Below are positions 960 to 64,000 of a stretch of 64,000 bases of DNA, piece after piece. The notes below the pieces were generated by a model. That model was given only the letters and a program-made list of their open reading frames with translations. It had not been told where the DNA came from and did no database searches. Location of the stretch: the NCBI GenBank assembly GCA_034421515.1, contig DAOUKH010000003.1, forward strand, positions 29,691-93,690. The letters run 5' to 3'. Numbering within the stretch: the first letter of the stretch is position 1; each line of letters opens with the position of its first letter. Position numbers and translations under genes: made by a program. The DNA comes from Dehalococcoidia bacterium. GTDB lineage: Bacteria; Chloroflexota; Dehalococcoidia; SHYB01.

Positions 960-1553
960 CTAGAACCGCCACCAGTCGAACCACTTGCCCAGGGGCATCT
1001 CCAAGAGCACGATGTCCCTGGGGTGACCCTGAAGGTCCTTGGCGTGGCCGGGGAGTGAGCCGACCCGAACGAATCCGACATACTCCGCAGCCTTAATGGC
1101 GTCGTCCTCATGATCGGAGACGGCCTCGAGGAGCAGGCGCTCGAGGCCGTGCTCGTTGGCGATGGTGGCGAGCTCGTTGAGCAAGGTGGTGCCGAGCCCG
1201 CGGTTCCGGTAGTCGTCGGCCACGGCGATCCTGATCTGCCCGATGTGGCGGCGGGCGTTGGCGCGGGACCGGTGCAGGGTGCCGTCGGCGACGATGGTGT
1301 CGCCGTCGAGAGCGATGATGGGCAGCGCGCGGTCGTAGTCCATGTCGTCGACCCAGCGCTGAATCACGACGGGCGAGGCCACGTCCTCTTTAAGGAAGAA
1401 CCGGTCCTTGGGAGAGAGCTCCTGAAAGAAGGCGAGCAGGGCGCCGGCGTCGTCCGGCTGCATGGGGCGCAGGACGATCGACGTGCCGTCCCGGAGTCCC
1501 ACCGTCTTGGGGTATGCGCTCAGGGTGTAGGTATGGGGCTTCTGTCCCGCCAT
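960..1553 (-). CDS. GNAT family N-acetyltransferase
   Basis: 197 aa; acetyl-CoA binding motif ...RNRGLGTTLL... and GNAT fold pattern. Confidence 0.75.
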   Translation of the reverse strand: MAGQKPHTYTLSAYPKTVGLRDGTSIVLRPMQPDDAGALLAFFQELSPKDRFFLKEDVASPVVIQRWVDDMDYDRALPIIALDGDTIVADGTLHRSRANARRHIGQIRIAVADDYRNRGLGTTLLNELATIANEHGLERLLLEAVSDHEDDAIKAAEYVGFVRVGSLPGHAKDLQGHPRDIVLLEMPLGKWFDWWRF

Positions 1554-1674
1554 GGCATCCTCGTCTCGTCGTCGTTGCCCGCCGCCGGGCCCGCATCACG
1601 GTACATCGGAGACGCTCCGAGGCGCAACCGCCGCTTGGGCCCGGCACACGTCCGGTGCTAGGGTTGGCGCGGCT

Positions 1675-2967
1675 ATGAGCACGGATACCGCAAGGGAGCC
1701 TGGCGACGTGCGCGGCGGCCCACCGCAACCGCGCAGATTCTTCTACGGCTGGGTGATCCTGGGCGCGGGGACCATCGCCCACGGGTTGAACGCCGCCTTC
1801 GGGATGCTTGGGCTGGGTGTCTTCTTCCTCCCCGTCCAAGAGACGTTCGGCGTTTCCAAGACAGCCCTCTCCGGCGCCTTCTCCCTCGCGCGGCTCGAGA
1901 GCGCCCTCCTCGGCCCGGTCCAGGGCTTCCTTGTAGACCGGTTCGGGGCGCGCCGGATCATGTTCGTTGGCGTGGGAATGCTGGGCGCCGGCTTCATGCT
2001 CCTCGGCGCGGCGCCCAACATCGTCTGGTTCTACGTCATCTTCGTCGGATTCATCGCCATCGGGCTGAACGTCGGGCTGGGCTCGCCCGTCTTCGCCACG
2101 GTGGTCAACTGGTTCGTGCGCCGGCGGACAAAGGCGCTGGCCCTCGTGCTTTCGGGGACGGCCCTCGCCACCCTCATCGTGCCCGGCATCGAGTGGTCCA
2201 TTGGGGAATACGGCTGGGAGCGGACCGCTCTCTATTCCGGGCTCTTCATCTGGGCCGTTGGATTCCCCATTGCCGCGCTCATGCGGTTCCGGCCCGAACC
2301 CTACGGCTATCACCCCGACGGCCTGCCTCCGGAAGAGACGCGGCCGACGACGACGGGCTTTCGGACCAGTCTCGACGGCTTCACCGTCCGCGCGGCGCTG
2401 CGCAGCCCGGCGTTCTGGCTCATCAACGGCTGCTTCGCGCTGCGGATGGCGAGCACGTCGGCGGTGCCGGTCCATCTCGTCGTCTTCCTAGTGGAAGACC
2501 TTGAGTTCAGTACGGAGCGGGGAGCGGTCTACCTCGGGCTCATTGGACTGCTCGGCCTCGGGGGCCGGTTCGCTTTCGGGATGCTTGGGGATATCGCACC
2601 CAAGCGTTTTGTGCTCTCGGCGGCGCTCCTCGTCCAGGCAGCCAGCCTCGCCGTGCTCGCCGCCGCCGACGGAAACGCGCTCGTGGTAGTGGCGTTGGTC
2701 CTCTTCGCCACGGGGCACGCCGGCGGCGGTCCGACCTACCTGGCGATCCAAGGCGAATACTTCGGCACGCGCAACTACGCCACCATCTCGGGCTTCGGGT
2801 CGACGGTGATCCTCGTCGGCGGCGTCAGCGGCCCGCTCATCGCGGGCGCGCTCGCCGACGGTTTCGACGACGGGTACCGCTACGCCTGGGCGGGGCTCGC
2901 GGTCGCGGCCCTCGTCGCAGGGGTCATCCTCGCCTTCGTCCGCGCGCCCAGACGGACGAGAGGGTGA
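1675..2967 (+). CDS. MFS transporter (oxalate/formate antiporter-like)
   Basis: About 12 TM helices and a G-rich MFS signature (GFLVDRFGARR); start placed at the internal ATG MSTDT rather than the upstream Arg-rich extension of ORF 1552. Confidence 0.75.
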   Translation: MSTDTAREPGDVRGGPPQPRRFFYGWVILGAGTIAHGLNAAFGMLGLGVFFLPVQETFGVSKTALSGAFSLARLESALLGPVQGFLVDRFGARRIMFVGVGMLGAGFMLLGAAPNIVWFYVIFVGFIAIGLNVGLGSPVFATVVNWFVRRRTKALALVLSGTALATLIVPGIEWSIGEYGWERTALYSGLFIWAVGFPIAALMRFRPEPYGYHPDGLPPEETRPTTTGFRTSLDGFTVRAALRSPAFWLINGCFALRMASTSAVPVHLVVFLVEDLEFSTERGAVYLGLIGLLGLGGRFAFGMLGDIAPKRFVLSAALLVQAASLAVLAAADGNALVVVALVLFATGHAGGGPTYLAIQGEYFGTRNYATISGFGSTVILVGGVSGPLIAGALADGFDDGYRYAWAGLAVAALVAGVILAFVRAPRRTRG

Positions 2968-2989: not shown

Positions 2990-4684
2990 CTACCCCGCCG
3001 CCGACTCGACGCGGCGGGAGACGGGGGCGCCTTGCTCGTGGTTGTTCACGAAGCCGCGCGACTGGTTCTTTTCGGGGTCGCCGGCGAGCATGAGGCCGAT
3101 CCACTCCGGCTTGGAGAAGACGGGGACGAGCCGGTCGGGGTCGGCCGACTCGACGTAGGCGGGCGGCGCGGACCCCGACGCAGCGAGCGCGGGCAGGTCG
3201 AAGTCGTAGGTCGAGGCGCGGCGGGCGTACTCCTGCAGCCGCCGCGCGGGTATCTTCGACCGCTCGTAGAGGAACGCGCGCACGTCGTCCTTGGACATGC
3301 CGTCGCGCGCGATCACCGACGCCGTCGCCGGGCTCATCGCAAGCAGCGGACACCAGCGCCCAAAGATGGCGGCGTTGAACGACCAGTACTCGTTCTCCAT
3401 CCCGAAGACGTCGGCGAGCATGCCCAACAGGTCTTCGGCGCGGTCGCCGATCGTGTAGATCGGGGGGCTGATGCTGACCACGCTCTGCACGGTGACGACG
3501 CTCTCATTGGGCGCGAAGCCCCGGTCCATGGCAAACGTGGGCCAGCCGATCTCGCGAGCGGCGGGCTCGTTCTCCGCGATGGCCATGTTGAACGTCGCGC
3601 CGAAGGCCGCCTTGTCGCCGCTGCCCGGCGGCGTGCGCAGTCCGGCGACGTTGCGCATGTAGAGGCGGACGAAGCGCCCCACGCTGCTATTGGCGCGGTT
3701 GCCGACGCGCAGGACGCCCGCGCCGGAGGCGAAACCGAGGCGTTCGATCACCGGGCCGCCGACGATGACCAGCGGCTCCCACCCCGGCGTGCTGCCCGCA
3801 TCCTCGAGGCGGAACTCGGGGTCGGCGATGGCCTTGACCGCCGCGACGAGCACCGGCATGTACTCGGGGCGGCATCCCGCCATCACGCCGTTGACGGCGA
3901 CGCTCCACACCGTGGCGAGCCGGTTGTCGGGCGGCAGCGTGCCGAGCGGTTCGTCGGCGTCGCGCGGCGTGCGGCGGAGGAACTCCTCGACCCGGTCAAC
4001 CGTCGGCGGGACGATGGGGAGCCCGTCGGTCCAGAGGAGGGAGTCAAAGCGTTCCTGCACCGCGTCGAGCGGGCCGTGAAAGACGATGTCGCGCGGCGCG
4101 GGTTCGGACTCCTCGCCTGCCAGACCCAGCGGCTTCGAAAAGGCCTCGGTCAAATCATCGGCGAGCGCGAGCACCTTGCCGCGGAACGCCTCCGGCGAGT
4201 CAGTAGCGATGACGCCGGGGTACTCGACGTGCGGCAGCGCTTCGACGCCCAGACCGCGGGCCACGGCGGCGGCTTGGCCCTTGAACGCCGTGGCAAGGAC
4301 GGAGACCGAGGGCACGCCGGCGCGCTCCGCTTCGACGCTGGCCCGCACCACGGCGGGGGTGCAGCTCCCTCAGGAGCCGACCGCCGCGACGACGGCATCC
4401 ACCCCCAGTTCGCGGAGCGCGTCGGGGATGCCCGCCATCACCTCGCGCTCGTCGGCGCCGTGGATGTTGCCAAAGGTGTCCCAGTCGACGAAGCGCGCGC
4501 CCGGCGCCCGCTCGGCGAGGACTTCCTTCATCAGCTCGAACATGCGGTCGCCCTTGAACAGGCCGTTCCACAGGAAGCCGATGGTCTTGCCGTTCAGGCC
4601 GTTCGGCCGGGGCGCGGGACGCAGCGCGCGGCGCGCCCGGGGCGCCAGCGGCCAGACGACCTCGTACGCCGGTTCGTTCGGCAT
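2990..4684 (-). CDS. UGSC-family selenoprotein fused to a conserved partner domain; in-frame UGA (Sec) at 4370-4372
   Basis: ORFs 4370..4684 and 2990..4351 share one frame and are separated only by TGA. Read-through gives ...AVVAAVGS-U-GSCTPAVV..., the U-G-S-C motif. A hairpin follows the UGA. The C-terminal ~400 aa matches paralogs at 59070-60152 and 62675-63718 (DGLPIVPPT, AVNGVMAGC). Confidence 0.7.
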
Positions 4685-4691
4685 GACCGCG

Positions 4692-5507
4692 CTAGGGAAG
4701 GTTCGTCCAGGCGCCCGCTTCCGAGCGGACCCAGCCGCTGCTGGCGAAGGTTCCGCCGTCGACGCTCAGGGTGACTCCCGTGATGTACGACGCCATCTCC
4801 GACGCGAGGAAGACGCAGGCCCCCGCCACCTCGTCGACGGTCCCCTGCCGCCGCATGGGGACGCCCCGGTAACGGTCGGAGCCGGGCTCGGCGTGGGCCC
4901 CGAACGCGGCCGTGTGCGGCGTGTCGACAACGTCGGGGGCGATGGCGTTGACACGGATGCCGTGATCGGCGAGCTCGAGCGCCAGCGTCCGGGTGAAGTT
5001 GATCATCCCCGCCTTGCACGCCGCGTAGACGGAGAAGTTCGGCGCGGCGCGAATCCCCTCGATGCTCGTGATGTTGATGATCGACCCCTTGCGGCCGTCC
5101 TTCATCATCGCCTGCACCGCCTGCTCGGTGGGGCCGAACAGCCCGTTGAAGTTCAGGTCGATGTGCTTCTTCCACGCCGGCGGGCCGCCCAATTCCATGA
5201 ACTGCGCGTAGCGCGTGCCGCCCGCGTTGTTGACCAGGATGTCGACGCCGCCGAGCTCGCTCACCGTGCGCTCCACCAGCGAGGTCACCTGGTCGTAGTC
5301 GCGGATGTCGGTGGTGATGGCGACGCCCTTGCGCCCGAGGCCGCAGACCTGCTCGGCGACGGCGTCGCCGCGCTCGGCGATCTTGTCGGCGATCACCACG
5401 TCGGCGCCGAACTTGGCGAAGGTCAGGGCGATGCCCTTGCCGATGCCGTCGCCGCCCCCGGTGACGATCGCGACCTTGTCGGTCAACAGAATGCTCGATG
5501 GGTCCAT
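4692..5507 (-). CDS. SDR family oxidoreductase
   Basis: TGGGDGIGKG Rossmann motif and catalytic S...YxxxK (YAACKAG); stop lies 8 nt upstream of the UGSC gene start, suggesting an operon. Confidence 0.8.
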   Translation of the reverse strand: MDPSSILLTDKVAIVTGGGDGIGKGIALTFAKFGADVVIADKIAERGDAVAEQVCGLGRKGVAITTDIRDYDQVTSLVERTVSELGGVDILVNNAGGTRYAQFMELGGPPAWKKHIDLNFNGLFGPTEQAVQAMMKDGRKGSIINITSIEGIRAAPNFSVYAACKAGMINFTRTLALELADHGIRVNAIAPDVVDTPHTAAFGAHAEPGSDRYRGVPMRRQGTVDEVAGACVFLASEMASYITGVTLSVDGGTFASSGWVRSEAGAWTNLP

Positions 5508-5552
5508 GCCGCGCCTCCTCAGCCGCTTCCGGCTCCGCGCATAATACCGGAC

Positions 5553-6102
5553 ATGGGCGTGGCGATGCGCATAGAGACCGAACGCCTGGTCTTGCGCGAC
5601 TACAGAGAGGACGATTGGCGGGCCGTCCTCGAATACCAACGCGACCCTCGATGTCTGCGCTTCTATCCATGGGACCGACGGAGCGAACAGGACGCGCGCG
5701 ACTTCGTTGGGCTGTTCATGGAGTGGCGCAAATGAACAGCCTCGCCGCCGCTTTCAACTCGCCATCACACTGCGGGGCGCCGACCTGGCGGTAGGCAGTT
5801 GCGGCCTGCGCCGCAAGCCGGGCGAAGCCGGGGAAGCCGACATCGGGTACGAGGTCGCGCCGCGGCTCTGGGGCCAGGGCTATGCCACGGAGGCGGCGCG
5901 GGCGATGGTGGACTTCGGCTTCCGCACGCTTGGTCTCTACCGGCTCTCGTCTTGGTGCATCGCCGAGAACACGGCGTCGGCGCGCGTGCTGGAAAAGGCC
6001 GGCTTCAAGCTCGAAGGCAGACTGCGGGAAAACGAGTGCTTCAAGGGGCGCCGCTGGGACACGCTCCTCTACGGTCTGCTGAAAGAGGAGTGGGAACGCT
6101 GA
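5553..6102 (+). pseudogene. GNAT (RimJ/RimL-like) N-acetyltransferase interrupted by a +1 frameshift near 5729-5733
   Basis: N-terminal part MGVAMRIETERLVLRDY...FMEWRK* is in frame 0; the C-terminal GNAT core (...FQLAITLRGADLAVGSCGL...WGQGYATEAARAMVDFGF...) is in frame +1. Removing one A from the AAA run at 5729-5731 joins them. Confidence 0.6.
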
Positions 6103-13328: not shown

Positions 13329-13413
13329 CTGCAGGCCACGCGTTGACACGGCGCTGTGGACCTCCTCTAGAAGCTGCGCTAGACTGCCCCGATACCGAAT
13401 CGAGGGCAGACAT

Positions 13414-15252
13414 ATGGCGCCACGCAAGGCCGACTCGAAAGCATACAGACAAAGGATCCGGCCATTCCTCAAGGAGTGGGAGGAACGCGGCTTCTCTAAA
13501 GAATGGCAGCAGTTCCGAAATTGGTCGGTAGAGCAGGTCTTGTGGGACCAGGAACTGTCTCCGGCAGAAATCGAAGACGCTACTCAAATTGACGGGTCGG
13601 ACGACAAGGGCATCGACGCCTGGTACTTCGATGAGGATGCTGATCCACCGCGCCTTATTCTGATCCAAGCCAAAGATCAGGAGATTGGAACACGTGACTT
13701 CCCTACGCTTCTATCCGGCTTCCGGGACGTGGTCAGTGGACTAGCGAGTGGAAACGCTGCTCTACAAGAAAAGGCTGCCGCATTTCGTTTACAACCGCCC
13801 AAGTTCTTCAACCTCGAATTATATCTTACAACCTCGACCATCGCGCAGGAGGGCTACCGGCCAAAGGAAGACGGAAGTCCTGTACGTACCGAATCGGAAT
13901 TTCTCAAGGTCCTTGACAACAGCTTCGCCAAAGTCTCCTATTATGTCAGAGACATTAAGTATCTTTACGATAAGTTGCAAGTATACAACAACGCACGGAT
14001 TGGATATACCTTCCATGTCGACAAAGACGCCTTCTTCGCGTTTGAAGCAGCCAATCACAAAACTGTTTGCGCTGCTATTGCTGGCGAAGAATTAGCGGAG
14101 TTGTTTTTAAATCATCGGGAGAATCTCTTCCGGGAAAACCCTCGCTACCATCTCCGTTCCGTCACGAACGAAAGGATCAAGGGAGCCCTTCGCGAATCCC
14201 AGCCTGACTTCTTTTTATACAATAATGGGCTCACTTGCGTCGCACGAACAATCAATTTGCCAGATGGCAGTGAAGGAGACAAGGTGCGGATTGAGGTTGA
14301 GGATTTTCAAATAGTCAATGGTTGCCAAACTGTAGCATCAATATGGTCAGTATTCAAGGACAAGACGGCAAACATCAGTAAGGTCAGAGTCTTGGCAAAA
14401 ATTGTCGAAAATTCTACAGCTGGTTCGGATGCAGATGGAATGTCTATGTTGATTGCCGAACGGTCAAACACTCAAAATGCATTGAAGGCCTTCGATTGGA
14501 AGGCAAATGACAAGCGACAGCAGCGTTGGCACGCACTGCTCCAGAGAATGGACCCTCCCTGGTTTTATGAAATCAAGCGGGGTACTTGGGCAGCCCTTCC
14601 AGCATCAGACAAGGCACATTATCGCTCGGGCAAGACTACTCAAAAGGTTAGCATGAAGGAGTTGGGGCAAGCAGGCTATGCGTTCTTGGGTTATCCAGGT
14701 TCCGCGGCGGACAAGCCTCGCAACATCTTCAAAAGTGATCGTGGCGATCCGGAGGACAATCGCGATAACTTATACGACACGATATTCCATGAAGGACTTT
14801 CTGGATCGCAATTGTTGTTGCCTCATCTGGTCTTCTTGGAAGCCGACGAAATAGCGAAAAGGAAACCGACTCTCAAGCTTTCAGATGCCAAAGATGACGT
14901 ATTCCCAAGCAAGTCACTTCGTTTCCCGGCCGTGGCCATAGTTGGGCATATGCTATCCGCGCTCGCGGAGCAGAAGCAGGGCTATCTTTCTCCCGCGCAC
15001 TCCGACGAGTTGCTTCGCAATAGGACTTGGCTTCCAGAGTTCGCAAAGACAGCGTTTGACGTGCTGGAGCCTAAACTGGCTGAGGTGTCCCGAGCACCAG
15101 GTTCGGGTGGCCCTAGGCGCATCGTCAGGGGCGACAATTGGATGGGCGATGCTCCCGCGAATGCACTCAATCAGATTCGTGCTCAGCTCAGGACTGAACA
15201 GCGTCTCGGTGCTAGTGGCGAGGGAACCCTTTCCGGGTCACTGCCCTTCTAG
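13414..15252 (+). CDS. AIPR-family abortive-infection (phage resistance) protein
   Basis: 612 aa, about 50% GC against a 70% GC background; QIVNGCQT motif and overall layout of Abi-like AIPR proteins. Confidence 0.6.
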   Translation: MAPRKADSKAYRQRIRPFLKEWEERGFSKEWQQFRNWSVEQVLWDQELSPAEIEDATQIDGSDDKGIDAWYFDEDADPPRLILIQAKDQEIGTRDFPTLLSGFRDVVSGLASGNAALQEKAAAFRLQPPKFFNLELYLTTSTIAQEGYRPKEDGSPVRTESEFLKVLDNSFAKVSYYVRDIKYLYDKLQVYNNARIGYTFHVDKDAFFAFEAANHKTVCAAIAGEELAELFLNHRENLFRENPRYHLRSVTNERIKGALRESQPDFFLYNNGLTCVARTINLPDGSEGDKVRIEVEDFQIVNGCQTVASIWSVFKDKTANISKVRVLAKIVENSTAGSDADGMSMLIAERSNTQNALKAFDWKANDKRQQRWHALLQRMDPPWFYEIKRGTWAALPASDKAHYRSGKTTQKVSMKELGQAGYAFLGYPGSAADKPRNIFKSDRGDPEDNRDNLYDTIFHEGLSGSQLLLPHLVFLEADEIAKRKPTLKLSDAKDDVFPSKSLRFPAVAIVGHMLSALAEQKQGYLSPAHSDELLRNRTWLPEFAKTAFDVLEPKLAEVSRAPGSGGPRRIVRGDNWMGDAPANALNQIRAQLRTEQRLGASGEGTLSGSLPF

Positions 15253-15307
15253 CCCCTAGCCCTCCTGCGAGACTGCTACACCCTACCGCCATCCCCGTCC
15301 AGGGTGC

Positions 15308-55951: not shown

Positions 55952-57433
55952 TTGAACCAGGCCCCCGGCGCGCGGCGCGTCAGCATGTGGGCGATCTATC
56001 TCATCGTCGGGGCGGGCGTCTATGTGACCTCCGCCGACTTCGGCCTGATCAACATCGCCGTTCCCACGATCGCCAGCCGCTTCGACGCGGACCTGCCGAC
56101 GATCCAGTGGGTCGTGCTCGTGCACGTGCTGGTCACCGGGGCCTTCTTGCTCCCGGCGGGGGCGGTCGGCGACGCACTGGGGAAGAAGCGACTGTTCGTG
56201 GGCGGGTTCGCCCTGTTCGCCGCCGGCTCCGTCCTGTGCGCGGTCTCGGGAAACCTGGTGCTGCTCATCGCGGCGCGCGGCATCCAGGGGATCGGCGGCG
56301 GGGTGGTCACCGGCGTCGGGTGGGCGACGCTGGTCAACTCCGCGCCGCCGGAGCAGCGCGGGCGCACGCTGGGCTTCCTGACCGGGATGGTGGCGGTGGG
56401 GATGATTTCGGGGCCGGTCTTCGGCGGCCTGCTCGTCGACGCGCTCGACTGGCGCAGCGTCTTCATCTTCACCGGCGTGCTCGCCCTGTTCGGCACGGTC
56501 TTCGCTCACTTCCGGCTCGCGGACGACACTCCCGAAGACCCTCCCAGCGTGCGGCAGCTCGACTGGCTGGGCATGGCCCTCGCCGCCGGGGCCATCGTCG
56601 GGGCGATGCTGATGTTGACCTCCGGGCCGAGGACGGGCTGGGATTCCGCCATGGTGATCGTCCCCGGCGCCGCCGCGGGGTGCGCCGTCGCCGCGCTTGT
56701 GTTCGTCGAGCTGCGCCATCCCGTGCCCATGATCGACTTGCGGCTCTTCCGCAACCGGGCCTTTTCGATGGGCAGCCTGGGGATGTTCCTCACCTTCACC
56801 ACGCTGGCGATCACGCCGGTCATGCTGCCCTTCTACCTGCAGGGCGTGCTCGAATTCTCGCCCCGCGCCGCGGGACTCATCCTGGCGCCGCAGATGACGA
56901 TGCTCGCCCTCTTCGGGCCCATCGGCGGGCGCATCGCCGACCGGGTGGGGTCGCGGTGGCCGGCGGCCGCGGGCGCCTGCTGCATGTTGGCGGCCTACCT
57001 GATCTTCACGCGGTTGGACGCCGAGACGTCCCTGCTGTTCATCATCATTCCGCTCATGCTGCAAGGGATGGGGAATGGGATGTTGGGCCCCGCCAACAAC
57101 AGCGGGATCGTGAGCTCGGTCGGGGCGGCGCGGATGGGGGTGGCGACGAGCTTCGTCAACCTGTCACGGGCGAGCGGCCTGAACGTGGGTATCGCCCTCG
57201 CGACGATCGTGATCACGCTGGGCATCACCACCATGGGCGTCGACCCCGATATCGGCGTCTTCCGTGAGGAGGGGGCCGTTCCCGACCCGCGACTCGTCGA
57301 CGGCTTCGTGGCGGGCCTGAGCAACACGTACCTCGTCGCCGCCGGTCTCATCACCGCGGCGGGGATCCTGATCGTCACCGGCATGCCCCGGCGGCGCGTC
57401 GCTGAGGGTGCGGCGGCAAAGGAAGCAGCGTAG
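55952..57433 (+). CDS. MFS transporter, DHA2 (14-TMS drug:H+ antiporter) family
   Basis: About 14 TM helices; GxLaDrxGrR-like motif (GPIGGRIADRVGSR). Confidence 0.8.
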   Translation: MNQAPGARRVSMWAIYLIVGAGVYVTSADFGLINIAVPTIASRFDADLPTIQWVVLVHVLVTGAFLLPAGAVGDALGKKRLFVGGFALFAAGSVLCAVSGNLVLLIAARGIQGIGGGVVTGVGWATLVNSAPPEQRGRTLGFLTGMVAVGMISGPVFGGLLVDALDWRSVFIFTGVLALFGTVFAHFRLADDTPEDPPSVRQLDWLGMALAAGAIVGAMLMLTSGPRTGWDSAMVIVPGAAAGCAVAALVFVELRHPVPMIDLRLFRNRAFSMGSLGMFLTFTTLAITPVMLPFYLQGVLEFSPRAAGLILAPQMTMLALFGPIGGRIADRVGSRWPAAAGACCMLAAYLIFTRLDAETSLLFIIIPLMLQGMGNGMLGPANNSGIVSSVGAARMGVATSFVNLSRASGLNVGIALATIVITLGITTMGVDPDIGVFREEGAVPDPRLVDGFVAGLSNTYLVAAGLITAAGILIVTGMPRRRVAEGAAAKEAA

Positions 57434-57457
57434 GGTAGGCTGCCAACGGAGGGGAGC

Positions 57458-58378
57458 ATGGGGAACAGTCTCGAGGGGCACGTTGCCATCGTCACGGGGG
57501 CGAGCCGCGGGATCGGGCAGGCTATCGCCGTGCGGTTCGCGGCGGAAGGAGCCGCGGTCGTTGCCGTGGGGCGGGACGAGCAGCGGCGCAACAAGGAGAT
57601 GGTGGGTTCGCTCGACGAGACCCTTCAAATGGTCCGGCAGGCCGGCGGGGCAGCCATCGCGGCGCACCTGGACTTCGAGGACCTCGATTTCGACAAGGGC
57701 CGTGTCGTGCGGCAGGCGGAGGAGGCCTTCGGGGCTTCCGTCGACATCCTGGTGAACAACGCGGCGGCGCCCCGGGAGTTCGACAACGAGGGCTTCATCC
57801 CCTTCGCGGAGATGCCCCGCGACTTCTTCCTCCGCAGCGTCGCGGTCAATCTTTGGGCGGCCTGGGACCTGGCGAAGGCGGTGATTCCCGGCATGCGGAG
57901 CCGGGGCGCAGGGTGGGTGCTGTCGATCTCTTCTTCCCAGGCCGAGCCGCGCCCCAAGCCCGGCGGCGCGACGCCCATGAACCGTCTGGGTGGCGGCTGC
58001 CTCTATGGGAGCTCCAAGGCTTTCCTGGACCGCCTGTCCACCGGCGCAGCGATGGAGCTCTTCGAGGACAACATCGCCGTCAACACCCTGGCTCCGACCA
58101 GCTTCATCGAGACACCCCTCTCCCGAGGCGTGGTGAGCAGCGTACCGACGGGCGCCGGCCGGGAGCCGCTGGAGACCTTCGCCGAGGCGGCGTTGGCGCT
58201 GTGCTCGGGCGACCCCCGCGTCTTGACGAGCCGCGTCGTGTACAGTCTCCCGCTCCTGGCCGAGCTCGACCGGCCGGTCTACACGCTGGACGGCACGCGC
58301 CTGTACGAGGGGTGGCAGCCGTCGCACGACGATCCCCGGAAGGGGCGGGCGACCTATCTGGCGGCGCTGGGGCACTAG
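57458..58378 (+). CDS. SDR family oxidoreductase
   Basis: VTGASRGIGQAIA Rossmann motif, NNAA, S...YxxxK (YGSSKAF). Confidence 0.8.
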   Translation: MGNSLEGHVAIVTGASRGIGQAIAVRFAAEGAAVVAVGRDEQRRNKEMVGSLDETLQMVRQAGGAAIAAHLDFEDLDFDKGRVVRQAEEAFGASVDILVNNAAAPREFDNEGFIPFAEMPRDFFLRSVAVNLWAAWDLAKAVIPGMRSRGAGWVLSISSSQAEPRPKPGGATPMNRLGGGCLYGSSKAFLDRLSTGAAMELFEDNIAVNTLAPTSFIETPLSRGVVSSVPTGAGREPLETFAEAALALCSGDPRVLTSRVVYSLPLLAELDRPVYTLDGTRLYEGWQPSHDDPRKGRATYLAALGH

Positions 58379-58402
58379 GATGATGACGACAAGGAGGCAG
58401 GC

Positions 58403-58915
58403 ATGGCCCACGACATGAGCGGCCGCGTGGCCCGGTTTGACGAGCTGCGCGCCAACCGGCAGGCGTTCGTCGATAGCAAGCTCCCCGGACACGAGCGGGA
58501 GAACTTCCGCATCATCGGGAAGGGGGTCACCGAAGACCCCGCCGATCGGCCCGCCATCACCGCGCCGCACGACTTCAACGTCGGCGGCATCAGGGCCAAG
58601 CCGGGCCACGGCGCGGCGTTGCACAGCCATCTGACCGTGGAGATCTTCATCCCCTTCTCCGGGCGGTGGGAGGTCTACTACGGCGACGACGGCGGGGAAA
58701 GCGTGGTCTTGGGCCCGCTGGACACCTTTTCGGTGCCGGCGGGCGTCATGCGGGGATTCCGCAACGTCGGGGACGACGAGGCGTTCCTGCTGACGATCAT
58801 CGGCGGGGCGGAGCCGGGGAAGGTCACGTGGTCGCCGGAGGTTCTCGCCGCCGCCTCGGCGTCGGGCGTCACGCGCAACGAGGCGGGGAATCTGGAGAAG
58901 GAGACGTCTGTGTAA
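58403..58915 (+). CDS. cupin-domain protein
   Basis: 170 aa; two-His cupin motif (GAALHSHLTVEIFIPFSGRWEV...). Confidence 0.65.
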   Translation: MAHDMSGRVARFDELRANRQAFVDSKLPGHERENFRIIGKGVTEDPADRPAITAPHDFNVGGIRAKPGHGAALHSHLTVEIFIPFSGRWEVYYGDDGGESVVLGPLDTFSVPAGVMRGFRNVGDDEAFLLTIIGGAEPGKVTWSPEVLAAASASGVTRNEAGNLEKETSV

Positions 58916-59075: not shown

Positions 59076-60152
59076 GGGGGCGGGCCTGATCGGGCGGCTG
59101 GTGGCCCAGCCGCCCATGTAGCCCCAGGACTGGATGCAGGCGCAGAAGCCGGCCTGGAGTCCGCCGGCCACGGTGATGAGCAGGTCTTCGGGCTTGCGCA
59201 GCACGGCGAGCATCGTGGTGTCGTCGAGGTCGTCGGGGGTTGCAGGCCAGACGTCCTCGGGCGCGCCGGCGTCCCACTGGATGCGACCGCGGTCAAGCAT
59301 GGTCTTCAGCGATACGAGGGCCCGCTCGTGGACGTGCTCCCCGATGGCCTGCTTCGACCAGCCGGCGTCGTAGAGCGGCTGGGCGACAAGGGGATTGAGC
59401 ACGAAGAAGACCTGCCCTCCGCGGCGGATGGTGTGCCAGCAGACCCGCACTTGCTCGATCATATCGAGCAAGGAGGCGTCGGGTTCGCGCGAGCCGCCGT
59501 ACTGGACGGGGCTGTCGCAGCCGATGACGGTGACGCCGCCGGCGCTGTCCACGCCGAAGTCGGCATGGAGCGGACCCCAGGGCGCGTCGGGCGACTCGCC
59601 GATGCAGTAGACGTACTTGCCGGGCGAGCCGAGGACGGACTTGTCACCCGTCTCCGGGTAGCCGCCGCCGAGCACCATCATCACGAGGCGCAGCGCCCGC
59701 CCGATCGTGGCGTTGGCGCGGTAGCCGGGCCCGAAGGCGCTGGTGCCGTAGTTGATTTCGAGGTCGTCGACGACCGGGCCGCTGACGATCACCAGCGGCC
59801 CCGCGGGGTGCGTCGTGGCCTGGAGCCCGTTGAGGTTGAAGCGCTCGTCGAGGGCGGCCTCGACGGCGGCCAGCACCACGGGGAAGTAGTCGGGACGGCA
59901 GCCCGCCATCACGGCGTTGGCGGCGACGGTCTCGATGGTGGCCACTCCCATGCGCGGCGGCACCGGCCCGAGGACCTCTTGAGGGTCGCGCCCGCTGCCC
60001 TCGACCATGCGCTCGATGAGGTCGGGGGTCGGTGGGATGATGGGCAGGCCGTCGGTCCAGCCCTTGCGGTAGAACTCCTCGATGGTCTCGATGCAGGAGT
60101 CCCAGCTATCGGCCGCGGTGAAGGTGGACGCCGCTTCGCCGGACTGGGTCAT
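59070..60152 (-). CDS. UGSC-associated conserved partner protein (paralog 2), separate gene
   Basis: MTQSGEAASTF...WTDGLPIIPPT...AANAVMAGCRPDYFPVVLAAVEA...; its ATG overlaps the UGSC gene stop as ATGA. Paralog of the C-terminal domain of 2990..4684 and of 62675..63718. Confidence 0.6.
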   Translation of the reverse strand: MTQSGEAASTFTAADSWDSCIETIEEFYRKGWTDGLPIIPPTPDLIERMVEGSGRDPQEVLGPVPPRMGVATIETVAANAVMAGCRPDYFPVVLAAVEAALDERFNLNGLQATTHPAGPLVIVSGPVVDDLEINYGTSAFGPGYRANATIGRALRLVMMVLGGGYPETGDKSVLGSPGKYVYCIGESPDAPWGPLHADFGVDSAGGVTVIGCDSPVQYGGSREPDASLLDMIEQVRVCWHTIRRGGQVFFVLNPLVAQPLYDAGWSKQAIGEHVHERALVSLKTMLDRGRIQWDAGAPEDVWPATPDDLDDTTMLAVLRKPEDLLITVAGGLQAGFCACIQSWGYMGGWATSRPIRPAPA

Positions 60153-60766
60153 GGCCGGTTTGCGGCTCGCGCGGCCGTTGGGGGCTCGGCGGATTTCGGG
60201 GTCAGCGTCCCTTCCATCAGCCATCGGACTACGCCGGGGTAGGCCGCTTCGCCCTGGGCCCGGTTGGCCTCGGCGTCGCCGAGATAGCCGGGGAGGATGA
60301 CGGGCTCGAATTCCTCGCAGCGCAGGTGGCGCCGCTTCATGAACGCCAACTGGCGGAAGACGTCGAGGATGACGACGGCGGCGGGGATGCCGTCGGTCTC
60401 GAAGGTGATCCCGTCGTGCATACAGCACGACGTGCAGGAGCCTCAGGCCCCGACGCCGATCACCATGGAGTCGACCTGCGCCTTCAGCTCCTCGTACATG
60501 TCCGGCGGGACCCGGGCCGAGAGGTTGGGCTTGCGTTTGAGGATTACTTGGTCGACGCCGTTATGTTCCTGTAGGAGCTCGCCGATGCGCTCAAGGACGA
60601 TGTGGCTGTCTTGGACGCCGTCGTCGAGCAGGCCGACGGTCTTCCCCCGGAGGGTGTCCACACGTCTGGCGAGGGAGGTTGGCTCGCGCCAGACGTGGCC
60701 GGACGGGTCGACGACGGTGATTTCTCGGTTCACGGTCTGCGCCATGGCGTTAGCCGTGCGGGTCAT
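60149..60766 (-). CDS. UGSC-family selenoprotein (stand-alone); in-frame UGA (Sec) at 60443-60445
   Basis: ORFs 60443..60802 and 60149..60421 are in one frame, separated only by TGA: ...MVIGVGA-U-GSCTSCCMHDG.... A perfect 8-bp stem hairpin (CGUCGUGC-UGUAU-GCACGACG) starts 10 nt after the UGA. Start set at ATG 60766, which overlaps the upstream hicB-like stop. Confidence 0.7.
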
Positions 60767-60996
60767 CTTGCAGCGCTTGGGGTGGGAGGGTTGAAGGTCC
60801 ACCCCTCTTTTTCCATATCGTCAATGTAAATGCGCAGGACATCGTCGGCGTTACGGATGGCATCATCCAGGGTCTTCCCAGTCGCCGCTACGCCGTCGAT
60901 ATCAGGAAAGGTCACCCAGTACATGCCCTTCTCCCGTTCTATCAGCGCGGGATATGTCAGCATGCCGTCACTCCCAACCGCAATACCTGAATGCAC
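60763..60996 (-). CDS. HicB-like (UPF0150) antitoxin-family protein
   Basis: 77 aa; ...YWVTFPDIDGVAATGKTLDDAIRNADDVLRIYIDDM... Confidence 0.55.
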   Translation of the reverse strand: MHSGIAVGSDGMLTYPALIEREKGMYWVTFPDIDGVAATGKTLDDAIRNADDVLRIYIDDMEKEGWTFNPPTPSAAR

Positions 60997-61005
60997 CGGC
61001 GGAAG

Positions 61006-61221
61006 TCACGCCTGCATCAGGCGTTCGCCCTTCGGCTCCGGAATCGGGTCGCCGAACTCTCGCGCCGTCTCAAGCCACAAGTCCATAGCCTCGTTGATGT
61101 GCACCAAGGCCGCCTCCTGCGTGTCGCCGTGGGCGGCGCAACCCGGAAGCTCGGGCACTTCGGCCACGAAGGCACCGTCTTCGTTGCTCCAATAGATGAT
61201 GATCTCGTACTTGTGCATCAT
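61006..61221 (-). CDS. hicB: HicB-family antitoxin
   Basis: 71 aa; YEIIIYWSNEDGAFVAEVPELPGCAAHGDTQEAALVHINEAMDLWLE. Confidence 0.7.
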   Translation of the reverse strand: MMHKYEIIIYWSNEDGAFVAEVPELPGCAAHGDTQEAALVHINEAMDLWLETAREFGDPIPEPKGERLMQA

Positions 61222-61475
61222 GATCCCTCTTCAAGCCGGTGTCTCAGGATGACATGACGGACCTGTCGGACCTGGTAGGGCTTGGCATGGTTGCCGTCGC
61301 GCTGCAAATTCACCCGTTCCCGGACGCCTTCTTTCCTGAAGATGTGATGACTGCCCCGCGTCCGCTCAACGAATCCTAAGCGTAGCAGGAATAGCCGCAG
61401 GTCGTCGAAGCGGACATTTGCGTCTGACCGACCGCTGAGAATCCTGTGGCGTAACTCGTTGCTGCGAGATGTCAT
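61218..61475 (-). CDS. hicA: HicA-family toxin
   Basis: 85 aa; ...LGFVERTRGSHHIFRKEGVRERVNLQRDGNHAKPYQVRQV...; overlaps hicB by 4 nt. Confidence 0.7.
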   Translation of the reverse strand: MTSRSNELRHRILSGRSDANVRFDDLRLFLLRLGFVERTRGSHHIFRKEGVRERVNLQRDGNHAKPYQVRQVRHVILRHRLEEGS

Positions 61476-61487
61476 CGCCGTCGCGCC

Positions 61488-62672
61488 CTAACCCCTATGC
61501 CCACGCCGGCGGACGTGGGCGGCGCTGAGGTCGGCGACGCTGGGGCAGCCGAGGAGGGCCAGGGCGCGGCGGAGCTCGGTGCGGAGGAGATCGAGGGCGC
61601 GGTCGACGCCGGGCTCGCCGCCGGCGCCGATGCCGTAGAGGTAGGCGCGTCCGATGGCGACGGCGCGCGCGCCGAGGGCCAGCGCCTTCGCCACGTCGGC
61701 GCCGCGGCGGACGCCGCCGTCGAGGATGACCTCGGCCCGGCCCGCCACCGACTCGACGACGGCGGGCAGCGCGTCGAGGGCCGCCGGGGCGTGGTCGAGC
61801 TGGCGCCCGCCGTGGTTCGACACGACGATCCCCTGCGCGCCGAGCGACGCCGCCCGCGCCGCATCCTCGGGGTCGAGTATCCCCTTGACCGCGAAGGGGC
61901 CGTTCCACTCGGCGATCATCCATTCCAGGTCGTCCCACGTCACCGAGGGGTCGAACTGGGTGTTGATGTACGTCCACAGCGCGGTGAGGTCGCCGCGGCC
62001 CGCGTCGCCCTGGCCCGCGACGTTGGCGAACCCGATGCGGCGACTCGTCAGGAAGTTCCACCACCACGACGGATGCAGCGCCGCGTCGAAGGCCGCCCCC
62101 AGGGTGAGCGACGGTGGGATGGTCATGCCGTTCCGGAGGTCGCGCTCCCGCTGGCCGAAGACGGGCATGTCGGCGGTGAGCATCAGGGCGTCGTAGCCGG
62201 CGTCGCGGCAGCGGCTGAAGAACTCGCGGACGAGCCCCCGGTCCTTCCAGACGTAGATCTGGAACCAGTTCGGGCCGTCGGACGCCGCGGCGAGCTCCTC
62301 GATCGACAGCGTGCTCAACGAGGAGAGCGAGTAGATCAGCCCGGCCCGGTGGGCCGACCGCGCCGCGGCGGCCTCGCCCTCGTGGTGGAAGAGCCGCGTC
62401 ATGCCCGTCGGCGCGAGCATGACCGGCATCGATACCGGCGTCCCCAGGACGGTGGTGGAGAGATCGACCGTCGACACGTCCCGAAGCACGCGGGGCAGGA
62501 GCTCGTAGTCCTGGAACGCCGCCTCGTTACGCCGCGCCGTGACCTCGTCCTCGGCGGCGCCGTCGGCGTAGTCGAACACGGCGCGGGGCAGGCGGCGCAT
62601 AGCGAGGCGGCGCAGGTCGGCGATGGAGTGGCAGCGGGCCAGCCGCGCCTCGGTGGAGAAGGGGAGCGGCAT
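61488..62672 (-). CDS. FMN-dependent alpha-hydroxy acid dehydrogenase/oxidase (LldD/glycolate oxidase family)
   Basis: Start set at MPLPFSTEAR...; FMN-binding TIM-barrel motifs (...VSNHGGRQLD..., LDGGVRRGADV); its ATG lies 3 nt after the stop of paralog 3. Confidence 0.8.
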   Translation of the reverse strand: MPLPFSTEARLARCHSIADLRRLAMRRLPRAVFDYADGAAEDEVTARRNEAAFQDYELLPRVLRDVSTVDLSTTVLGTPVSMPVMLAPTGMTRLFHHEGEAAAARSAHRAGLIYSLSSLSTLSIEELAAASDGPNWFQIYVWKDRGLVREFFSRCRDAGYDALMLTADMPVFGQRERDLRNGMTIPPSLTLGAAFDAALHPSWWWNFLTSRRIGFANVAGQGDAGRGDLTALWTYINTQFDPSVTWDDLEWMIAEWNGPFAVKGILDPEDAARAASLGAQGIVVSNHGGRQLDHAPAALDALPAVVESVAGRAEVILDGGVRRGADVAKALALGARAVAIGRAYLYGIGAGGEPGVDRALDLLRTELRRALALLGCPSVADLSAAHVRRRGHRG

Positions 62673-62674
62673 CG

Positions 62675-63718
62675 CTACCGCCGTATCGGCTTGGTGACCG
62701 ACTTGGGCGAGCCGAACGACGGCATGTAGGTCGAGTGCAGGCCGCCGTCGCCGCCGGCCACGGCGATCATCCAATAGTCCGCCGTCGGCACCATCGGGTA
62801 CATGCCGTCCACGATCAGGTCGGGGCGGGTGTCGCGGCGGCTTCTCGCGGTCGCGTGGATGCGGTCGCCGGGCAGGCGGGTGTGTTCGTGGAAGTAGCGC
62901 TTGACGTCGTCCTTCGACCAGCCCCCTTCGGCCAGGGCGCGGGCGTGGCCGGGGTTGAAGACCACCAGCGGCTCGCCGGTGAAAAGGGAGAACTGCGTGA
63001 TCGCGGGCGCGGTCATCGTCTGCGCGAAGGCGGCCATGCCGCCCTCGGCCATGACACGGTCGCCGTAGGTGCAGTTCAGCGTCGTGTTGGGCGCGATGAC
63101 GGTGACGCAGCTCTCGTCCGCGTCGAAGCCGCGTTCGACGTGGAGCGGGTCCCAGGGGCTCTCTTCTTCATTCTCGCCGAAGCACAGAGAGAATTTGCCG
63201 GGAAAGCCCTGCGTCGCCTTGTCGACCTCGCCGGGCACGGCGCCCCCGATGTTGAGCAGAATCAGGCGGACGGCCCGCCCGATCGAGGCGTTGGCGCGGG
63301 TTCCCGGCCCGAGGCACCCGGCGCCGGAGTTGATCCCGATCTCGTGGCGGATAGGGCCGTTCACAATGACGCCGACCCCCACGGGGTTGGTGGTGGTCTG
63401 GATGCTGTAGAGGAGGAACTCCTCCTCGGTCATCGCCTCGACGGCGGTGGCGACCACCGGCATGTGCTCGGGCAGGCAGCCCGCCATCACCGCGTTCACC
63501 GCGACCTTCTCGACGGTGGCCTCGGCCACCGCAGGGTGCACGACGCCGAGGACGTCGTCGGGCGCCCGACCCGACGCGGCGACCATCGCCGCGACGCGCT
63601 CCTCCGTGGGCGGCACGATGGGCAGCCCGTCGGTCATGCCGCGGGCGTGGAAATACTCGATGGCCTCGTCGTAGCCGCCCGCGGAGACGCGCGTGGAGGT
63701 GAGGTGTGGGTCGGCCAT
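62675..63718 (-). CDS. UGSC-associated conserved partner protein (paralog 3)
   Basis: MADPHLTST...MTDGLPIVPPT...AVNAVMAGCLPEHMPVVATAVEA...GAGCLGPGTRANASIGRAVRL. Confidence 0.6.
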   Translation of the reverse strand: MADPHLTSTRVSAGGYDEAIEYFHARGMTDGLPIVPPTEERVAAMVAASGRAPDDVLGVVHPAVAEATVEKVAVNAVMAGCLPEHMPVVATAVEAMTEEEFLLYSIQTTTNPVGVGVIVNGPIRHEIGINSGAGCLGPGTRANASIGRAVRLILLNIGGAVPGEVDKATQGFPGKFSLCFGENEEESPWDPLHVERGFDADESCVTVIAPNTTLNCTYGDRVMAEGGMAAFAQTMTAPAITQFSLFTGEPLVVFNPGHARALAEGGWSKDDVKRYFHEHTRLPGDRIHATARSRRDTRPDLIVDGMYPMVPTADYWMIAVAGGDGGLHSTYMPSFGSPKSVTKPIRR

Positions 63719-63723
63719 CGCGG

Positions 63724-64000
63724 CTATGCCTCGGACGCCTCGGCGGGAACGTTCACCACGCCCCGGTCAGGGACCAGGAGGGCGGCGACGGCGGCGTCGA
63801 GCGCCCGGTAGGCGATTTCGCGGACCAAGGGTTCGTCAAGCGTGTCGTAGGGGAAGGGGAGGATGACCTGGGGCAGCGCCGGCATCCCCCGGCCCTTCGC
63901 CGAGGCCGCCGCCAGGGCTTGGAAGGCCTTGGTGCTCACGGTCACCGTGGGGATGCCCTGCTTCTCGATCTCGATGCTGTCGTGGATACACCACGCGGTG
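63724..64000 (-). CDS. UGSC-family protein, 3' part only; the U/C-G-S-C motif lies just beyond the window end
   Basis: In-frame translation to the window edge: TAWCIHDSIEIEKQGIPTVTVSTKAFQAL...PQVILPFPYDTLDEPLVREIAYRALDAAV...*. It aligns with the post-UGSC region of the other two copies (CMHDGITFETDGIPAAVVILDVF...EPVILPGYLGD...). Confidence 0.5.
   Translation of the reverse strand, partial: TAWCIHDSIEIEKQGIPTVTVSTKAFQALAAASAKGRGMPALPQVILPFPYDTLDEPLVREIAYRALDAAVAALLVPDRGVVNVPAEASEA

Follow-up and report, generated by a model that had tools for sequence, protein, structure and literature searches.

The DNA analysed here, referred to as the window, is a stretch of 64,000 nucleotides from a Dehalococcoidia bacterium (contig DAOUKH010000003.1, positions 29,691 to 93,690 of the forward strand), and its end cuts through a gene of the UGSC family, a family marked by a U-G-S-C motif in which U is selenocysteine (Sec). 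This gene, UGSC3, lies directly upstream of a gene for a large protein of about 350 residues from a nameless family, hereafter the partner, and UGSC and partner also occur together at two other loci of the window (loci 1 and 2, Table 1). UGSC3 is a new member of a known, functionally uncharacterised selenoprotein family. As judged from sequence comparisons, UGSC and partner appear to be halves of one enzyme, because the two genes are linked and frequently fused, their mirror-trees are correlated and the predicted model of a fusion is compact. We propose, with a probability of about 0.5, that this enzyme may be a two-subunit thiol/selenol-dependent reductase acting on small carboxylates and re-reduced by a thioredoxin-type system, its chemistry, reductant and substrate class being modelled by analogy on selenoprotein B (GrdB/PrdB).

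The third UGSC locus and its paralogs in the window

The window ends on base 64000, the final base of the Cys codon in the U-G-S-C motif of UGSC3. Read on the minus strand in the frame from 63999, the remaining fragment encodes the peptide TAWCIHDSIEIEKQGIPTVTV...PQVILPFPYDTLDEPL... (the same translation also given as TAWCIHDSIEIEKQGIPTVTVSTKAF...PQVILPFPYDTLDEPLVREI...), which matches the PF24696 'UGSC family' model with an E-value of 2.4e-18 and 67.3 bits, for a cutoff of 25. The stop codon of UGSC3 is separated by 5 nt from the start of partner3, and that of partner3 by 2 nt from the ATG (62672) of FMN_dh, a gene of the flavin mononucleotide (FMN)-dependent alpha-hydroxy-acid dehydrogenase/oxidase family. 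A first-pass annotation of the window had rightly described these genes as closely spaced, with intervals one nucleotide too long (6 and 3 nt). FMN_dh scores 369 bits against NF008398, slightly under the cutoff of that model. A tblastn search within the window recovered two further UGSC copies and two further partner copies; partner3, already recognised as a third paralog in the first-pass annotation, shares 39.5% identity with partner2 (E 3e-60) and 39.3% with the partner portion of the locus-1 fusion (E 1e-44). Owing to the PF24696 match and to these paralog similarities, the third UGSC-partner locus is real, well past chance.

An exact-protein look-up with partner3 led to a contig of 4682 bp (Logan SRR13587046_9721, here L001), which is identical to the end of the window along 2677 nt (0 mismatches) and adds 2005 nt past the edge. 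It carries the complete UGSC3 gene (L001:1704-2282, 192 codons), preceded by a strong Shine-Dalgarno sequence, and the motif reads ...ADAVINGLGN-TGA-GSC-TAWCIHD.... The first-pass expectation that a UGSC motif lay just beyond position 64000 was thereby borne out, and the codon that it had left undecided is TGA, not TGC. By extension, this codon occupies window position 64009-64011, i.e., 9-11 nt past the edge. Since UGSC3 uses TGA, as read on the identical contig, the third copy is of the Sec type.

The U-G-S-C motif with an in-frame TGA is present in all three window copies (in UGSC3 via L001). Against PF24696, full-length UGSC3, UGSC2 and the locus-1 fusion score 156.5, 131.8 and 110.8 bits, respectively, while the 125-bit equivalog cutoff of NF041046 is missed by all of them (102.7, 93.2 and 68.4 bits). 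The window copies thus appear, from these scores, to be divergent subfamilies of the Pfam-level UGSC family. They display three arrangements within one window: a fusion at locus 1, an ATGA overlap at locus 2 and a 5-nt spacer at locus 3. Locus 1, previously read as two genes, consists of one reading frame that is broken by nothing but its Sec TGA, and the portion of the fusion after this TGA is identical to a database protein (P0121).

Recoding of UGA and the downstream hairpin

In 82 UGSC genes from related loci, the Sec column holds TGA 76 times and Cys (TGC or TGT) 6 times; it is Cys in 39 of the 41 full-length fused homologs. A hairpin begins 12-14 nt past the UGA in all three window copies, with an apical loop of the form (U)GU(A/G)(U), which resembles a Sec insertion sequence (SECIS). 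In UGSC3 it was located by folding and from the register of the conserved hairpin, and in UGSC2 by folding and alignment with the conserved hairpin, where an 8-bp stem CGUCGUGC/GCACGACG carries the loop UGUAU. The candidate hairpin of locus 1 is weaker than the other two and is not the minimum-energy structure of RNAfold; its assignment is based on a GCCCGC...GCGGGC stem in the fusion-type genes of L012, L016, L023 and L027.

Conservation of the hairpin was evaluated over 68 distinct Sec-type UGSC genes, with 500 shuffles and with slid registers. Pairing was observed in 90.8% of cells, with changes on both sides at 5 of the 8 pairs (35 cells), and this pairing was matched by 0 of the 500 shuffles and by no slid register. 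One pair is G-C in 48 genes and C-G in 20, its 3' base being a synonymous third codon position. The stem is encoded within codons for the conserved peptide S-W-S-V-H-D (alignment A6, columns 21-39), in which the use of Trp (UGG) or of Cys (UGC) changes in step with the base at a synonymous third position five codons on. RNA structure and protein sequence thus constrain each other. At the gathering score, Rfam reported only tRNAs in the window and no SECIS family match.

These data bear on the possibility that the TGA is an ordinary stop or a sequencing error, the UGSC3 edge fragment then being a pseudogene remnant or a separate short open reading frame (ORF). Gene callers do routinely split UGSC genes at UGA, and the 64-kb window contains neither sel genes nor, among its four tRNAs, a tRNA-Sec. 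However, 76 related genes have the same in-frame TGA where others have Cys, the reading frame is kept both before and after it, a covarying SECIS hairpin follows, and the independent assembly L001 is identical in sequence, so that the probability of this explanation is negligible. The UGA of UGSC genes is accordingly predicted to be decoded as Sec, aided by the SECIS hairpin in the following codons.

Linkage and co-evolution of UGSC and its partner

The association seen in the window was clearly found in many other genomes. A scan restricted to one genome per species returned more than 596 partner loci, from hosts as different as Chloroflexota/Dehalococcoidia, Betaproteobacteria, Binatia, Rokubacteria, Methylomirabilota, Acidimicrobiia, a haloarchaeon (Natrialba) and Methanobacteriaceae. 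The closest locus to that of partner3 belongs to a Dehalococcoidia metagenome-assembled genome (MAG), with 96% identity. A UGSC gene was present in 74 of 81 loci collected via the partner and, under stricter criteria, 79 of 105 partner genes had a UGSC gene on the same strand within 450 nt. UGSC comes first in 58 of these 79 adjacent pairs and the partner in 21. Several loci hold two to three UGSC-partner pairs in tandem, single-ORF fusions are frequent, and full-length fusions of the Cys type are common.

Distances among UGSC proteins and among their adjacent partners were correlated in a mirror-tree comparison (r = 0.815; 0 of 999 permutations as high), and the nearest relative of a UGSC protein and that of its partner belonged to the same pair in 42 of 79 cases. 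From a structural point of view, an AlphaFold2 model of P0130, a fused Cys-type homolog 53% identical to the locus-1 fusion, folds as one compact body (predicted local distance difference test, pLDDT, 91.2; predicted template modelling score, pTM, 0.92). Partner genes with no detectable UGSC gene within 6 kb were those of L006, L059, L075, L078 and L028, which may be solitary or paired with a very divergent UGSC.

The partner, a conserved family without a name

Partner proteins are recognised by the motifs DGLPxxPPT, AVNAVMAGC, RANAxIGR, ENE and PWxPLHVERG. Partner3 has at least 7941 homologs, every one annotated as 'hypothetical' and 0 with a Pfam domain, and a partner profile searched against 1.84 billion representative proteins retrieved 7982 clusters (50% identity) at E<=1e-3, with 2557 at E<=1e-30. 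No recurring Pfam or NCBIfam family was found in 38 partner sequences, even at E<=5, and a sequence-profile search of the PDB revealed no relative. What the first-pass annotation had treated as a partner domain is therefore a real conserved family, linked or fused to UGSC across many phyla and matching no named Pfam or NCBIfam family; it merits a family model of its own. Chains of about 710-740 residues (P0241, P0249, P0257, P0279, P0330 and P0334) contain two to three partner domains in tandem.

Over 387 members, G80, R148 and E182 are invariant and D30, N143 and W189 exceed 99%. C81, the Cys of the AVNAVMAGC motif, is kept in 380 of them (98%) and is placed by the predicted model at a helix N-terminus, between two helices. 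An Fe-S or metal site spanning both subunits was also weighed, but the idea was given up: C179, the second partner Cys, occurs in only 246 of the 387 members and is missing in the locus-1 fusion.

In Global Ocean Sampling (GOS) reads, UGSC has been described as fused to a conserved domain, named 'Unknown_1', that contains a conserved Cys and also stands alone in some aquatic organisms (Zhang & Gladyshev 2008, Fig. S1A). By its description alone, 'Unknown_1' probably corresponds to the partner. Gene neighbourhood, fold and a relation to GrdB/PrdB are not analysed in that article.

Fold of UGSC

UGSC has been without assigned function (PMC13188914, PMC1976440) and is described in the literature as thioredoxin-like. 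Both positions of its U-x-x-C pair are strictly conserved in the family. In the predicted model, Sec and the Cys three residues on (Cys+3) are located at a beta-strand/helix junction, and the modelled fold is flavodoxin/CheY-like rather than that of thioredoxin. UGSC resembles the thioredoxin-, peroxiredoxin- and DsbA-like UxxC/CxxC oxidoreductases in having U-x-x-C at a helix N-terminus and in the interchange of Sec and Cys, but these enzymes adopt the thioredoxin fold, unlike the predicted fold of UGSC. No match to UGSC was found in a sequence-profile search of the PDB.

Relationship with the GrdB/PrdB reductases

A second resemblance concerns selenoprotein B of the glycine, sarcosine and betaine reductases (GrdB, GrdF and GrdH) and of D-proline reductase (PrdB) (PF07355, TIGR01917/01918, TIGR04483), with which UGSC shares a segment of the form strand-Sec-x-x-Cys-helix-Glu-x3-[IV]-P-T-V. 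Among 34 UGSC sequences, 20 gave weak matches to TIGR01917 (GrdB), with a best E-value of 1e-6, and weak matches were also obtained to TIGR01918 (14), GrdF (14), GrdH (12) and PrdB (5); the GrdB/GrdF/GrdH/PrdB matches always cover the Sec segment. The UGSC profile was then compared by hhalign with a profile of 18 GrdB/PrdB-side sequences, 12 of which match PF07355. This gave a probability of 71% and an E-value of 3.6e-5; in the alignment the Sec residues of both profiles coincide, as do Cys+3, the Glu after it and the G-I-P-T-V strand. UGSC thus probably shares the Sec module of the GrdB/PrdB family. It nevertheless lies outside that family, because the similarity covers about 75 residues and stays under every curated cutoff: full-length UGSC3 reaches at best 19.4 bits against GrdB/PrdB models whose cutoffs range from 65 to 800, and shows no match to PF07355. 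The Pfam GRDB model stops 2-3 residues ahead of Sec, apparently as a result of being built from proteins truncated at UGA, and the similarity with UGSC is therefore hidden from routine domain searches.

Both systems would involve a selenoprotein working with a second, substrate-binding subunit encoded alongside, an arrangement that is proposed here for UGSC, and a thioredoxin-type reductant is proposed in both. UGSC differs from the GrdB/PrdB systems in its size (about 190 residues), in its hosts, which include aerobes and archaea, and in a partner unrelated to PrdA/GrdE. The pyruvoyl subunits PrdA and GrdE, which are required for selenoprotein function, nonetheless resemble the partner as second subunits beside a selenoprotein and in their single critical Cys; the partner may be their functional analogue, although no sequence similarity between them and no sign of self-cleavage was detected.

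One may go further and suppose a true Prd/Grd-type enzyme, in which the partner would be cleaved between Gly80 and Cys81, Cys81 would become a pyruvoyl group binding an amine substrate, and Sec would cleave C-N reductively. Formation of pyruvoyl from Cys is known only for the pyruvoyl reductases (PrdA T420/C421), in which the pyruvoyl subunit is paired with GrdB/PrdB (PMC11229817). The conservation of Gly80 (100%) and Cys81 (98%) and the homology of UGSC with the PrdB Sec segment are in line with such a scheme. However, partner sequences showed no similarity to the PrdA/GrdE families even at E<=5, the predicted position of Cys81 between two helices is not a typical strand-turn self-cleavage site, and no PrdH-like gene was noticed. 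We consider this variant very unlikely.

Gene neighbourhood

The genomic context of UGSC-partner pairs was evaluated over 149 nearest neighbours. TctC solute-binding proteins were the most frequent (18), followed by family III CoA-transferases (6), SBP_bac_5 (5), DUF6282 (5), acyl-CoA dehydrogenases (4), Amidohydro_2 (4) and short-chain dehydrogenases/reductases (SDR, 3). The closer orthologs of partner3 adjoin amidohydrolases, major facilitator superfamily (MFS) transporters, acyl-CoA dehydrogenases and CoA-transferases. The general theme suggested by these genes is the uptake and catabolism of small carboxylic acids, and the context points only to that class of substrate. At locus 3, L001 carries upstream of UGSC3 a phosphotriesterase-family gene (PF02126) and, ahead of that gene, an ORF for a 226-aa protein without known family; the phosphotriesterase-family gene and, downstream, FMN_dh would be local pathway neighbours. 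The 226-aa protein (L001 39-719) matches no Pfam or NCBIfam family, a 52%-identical copy is encoded directly upstream of the UGSC gene in L004, and a comparable 206-aa gene of no known family occupies the same place in L082. This protein may be a further companion of the UGSC3 subfamily.

A conserved dehydrogenase companion was rejected. FMN_dh stands beside the pair only in the window (that is, L001) and in a 96%-identical relative (L002), so that the link to a dehydrogenase is local, and the SDR upstream of the locus-1 fusion is likewise local context. The first-pass annotation had suggested a Sec-dependent redox module that, together with the dehydrogenase beside it, would act on a hydroxy- or keto-acid, and in which the UGSC Sec would form an intersubunit selenenylsulfide with the partner Cys of the AVNAVMAGC motif. 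The redox role is plausible, considering the invariant U-x-x-C, the segment shared with GrdB/PrdB and the neighbours related to thioredoxin reductase (TrxR) described below, while the dehydrogenase part proved not to be general. As for the intersubunit bond, the conservation of C81 and its predicted position at a helix N-terminus, the clear joint action of UGSC and partner as seen in linkage and co-evolution, and the immediate vicinity of FMN_dh at locus 3 and of the SDR at locus 1 are compatible with it. UGSC nonetheless owns an invariant Cys+3, the usual resolving residue, and FMN_dh and SDR neighbours are as rare as stated above, which makes this scheme rather improbable.

TrxR-like genes (TIGR01292-like, with CAAC or CAVC motifs) are immediate neighbours of UGSC in three genomes, those of a Streptomyces relative and of two MAGs (Acidobacteriota and Dehalococcoidales), and a fourth is found at a distance of 4 kb from UGSC in Chelativorans (Table 1). 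They occur in a minority of loci, yet recur across phyla. Two of the four score under the TrxB equivalog cutoff, which suggests dedicated paralogs.

Proposed function

From a mechanistic point of view, UGSC3 would be a flavodoxin-like domain of about 190 residues bearing Sec and, three residues on, Cys. The partner would bind the carboxylate substrate through R148, K/R269, N143, E182 and C81. The UGSC selenolate would attack the small carboxylate held in the partner, in the way that U151 of PrdB attacks the alpha-carbon of D-proline (PMC11229817); the adduct would then be resolved by Cys+3, giving a selenenylsulfide that would in turn be reduced by thioredoxin or by a TrxR-like flavoprotein. 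Many paralogs, each specific for its own substrate, may have arisen within the family, and the window has three of them.

A redox-neutral carboxylate isomerase, racemase, lyase or hydratase should also be considered, with Sec/Cys and the partner Cys as a nucleophile or acid/base pair, comparable to the two-thiol racemases or to maleate isomerase. Each half would supply one catalytic thiol or selenol, there are many paralogs per genome, aerobes are among the hosts, and genes typical of non-redox acid catabolism are found nearby (MmgE/PrpD, enoyl-CoA hydratases, CoA-transferases and lactonase-type hydrolases). The strictly conserved U-x-x-C is, however, a hallmark of redox enzymes, reductases have a homologous Sec segment, and TrxR-like genes are found alongside; moreover, Sec is seldom used outside redox chemistry. 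Redox-neutral chemistry therefore seems unlikely.

Several observations weigh against the reductase that we favour. Its similarity with GrdB/PrdB has the restricted extent given above, and UGSC is devoid of the N-terminal GRDB region of about 330 residues, with about 97-105 residues ahead of Sec compared with about 345 positions in the GRDB model. No PrdA/GrdE, GrdA, GrdC or GrdD was found in the window loci or in the 25 commonest families among the 149 nearest neighbours. Many UGSC carriers live aerobically, in contrast to the anaerobic fermenters from which Grd and Prd enzymes are known. TrxR-like neighbours were seen at just about 5 of about 87 loci, and that of Chelativorans may be a housekeeping trxB. 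At about 5-7 partner loci, no UGSC gene was detected within 6 kb. Finally, biochemical data exist for no member of the UGSC family (PMC13188914, PMC2398784).

Other features of the window

As described in the first-pass annotation, an SDR gene adjoins locus 1, and hicA (61218..61475) and hicB (61006..61221) separate FMN_dh from UGSC2. A second HicB-like ORF (60763..60996, PF15919) overlaps the earliest candidate starts of UGSC2 (60802 and 60766). Genes for MFS transporters are convergent with the locus-1 fusion and with partner2 (window 1552-2967 and 55952-58915), a theme that is found at two of the three window loci (1 and 2); beyond the MFS gene of locus 2 come an SDR and a cupin gene. Elsewhere, positions 13400-15300 form a low-GC island (GC 0.46-0.52, versus 0.68 for the whole window), which is probably foreign DNA. 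Its ORF 13414..15252(+) encodes 612 residues and has a GC content at third codon positions (GC3) of 0.55; the PDB contains no protein related to it in sequence.

Table 1. Positions of the UGSC-partner loci, adjoining genes and hairpins in the window, and of TrxR-like genes on other contigs.
Feature	Position	Strand	Basis or remark
Locus-1 UGSC-partner fusion, 564 aa, Sec TGA 4372-4370	2990..4684	minus	Single frame; PF24696, E 1e-31
Locus-1 candidate SECIS hairpin, CCCGC-CGUGGU-GCGGG	4342..4357	minus	Homology with fusion-type genes
SDR gene, 7 nt upstream of the locus-1 fusion	4692..5639	minus	PF13561 and PF00106
Partner2, 360 aa	59070..60152	minus	ATG (60152) overlaps the UGSC2 stop as ATGA
UGSC2, Sec TGA 60445-60443, motif GVGA-U-GSCTSCCMHD	60149..60766	minus	Translation; PF24696, E 3.7e-38
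UGSC2 SECIS-like hairpin, 8-bp stem	60412..60432	minus	Folding; alignment with the conserved hairpin
FMN_dh, FMN-dependent alpha-hydroxy-acid dehydrogenase/oxidase family	61488..62672	minus	PF01070, E 5e-143
Partner3, 347 aa, family without name	62675..63718	minus	ATG 63718; TAG 62677-62675
UGSC3, 3' part (91 codons and TAG stop 63726-63724)	63724..64000	minus	Translation; PF24696; full gene on L001
UGSC3 SECIS-like hairpin, CGUGG-UGUAU-CCACG, 14 nt past UGA	63981..63995	minus	Folding; register of the conserved hairpin
TrxR-like genes near UGSC or a UGSC fusion	L085 2775-3686; L039 3576-4484; L007 2-325; L087 2822-3775		Four distant lineages

Significance for the UGSC family

UGSC has ranked among the most abundant selenoprotein families of ocean and freshwater metagenomes since 2007-2008 (PMC2398784, PMC13188914). 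The window copies share the motif, the TGA and the SECIS hairpin with the family as defined (PF24696, NF041046; the 'UGSC-containing protein' of Zhang & Gladyshev), and fused forms are already labelled 'UGSC family (seleno)protein' at NCBI, but the near-obligate partner is included in neither family definition. In the searchable literature we found no account of the near-obligate two-gene architecture of UGSC and partner, of a partner without solved structural relative, of a non-thioredoxin fold of UGSC, of its in-register link with GrdB/PrdB, or of TrxR-like neighbours.

The present data indicate that UGSC proteins are almost never alone, being accompanied by a near-constant, large and unnamed partner to which they are often fused. 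With this linkage, the GrdB/PrdB-like Sec segment, the non-thioredoxin fold and the TrxR-like neighbours, UGSC now has a testable enzyme hypothesis, and the Cys form has cultured carriers among relatives of Streptomyces, Novosphingobium, Chelativorans, Nocardioides and Natrialba. More tentatively, UGSC and partner could represent a very widespread, unrecognised class of Sec/Cys-dependent reductases, numbering about 8,000 clusters (50% identity) and ranging from Chloroflexota to haloarchaea. Such enzymes would have retained no more of the Stickland-type selenoprotein B than its Sec-x-x-Cys module, combined with a substrate subunit for which there is no solved structural relative, and would reductively cleave C-N, C-O or C-S bonds at the alpha-carbon of various carboxylates, both in aerobes and in anaerobes. 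If true, this would account for the abundance of UGSC in aquatic metagenomes.

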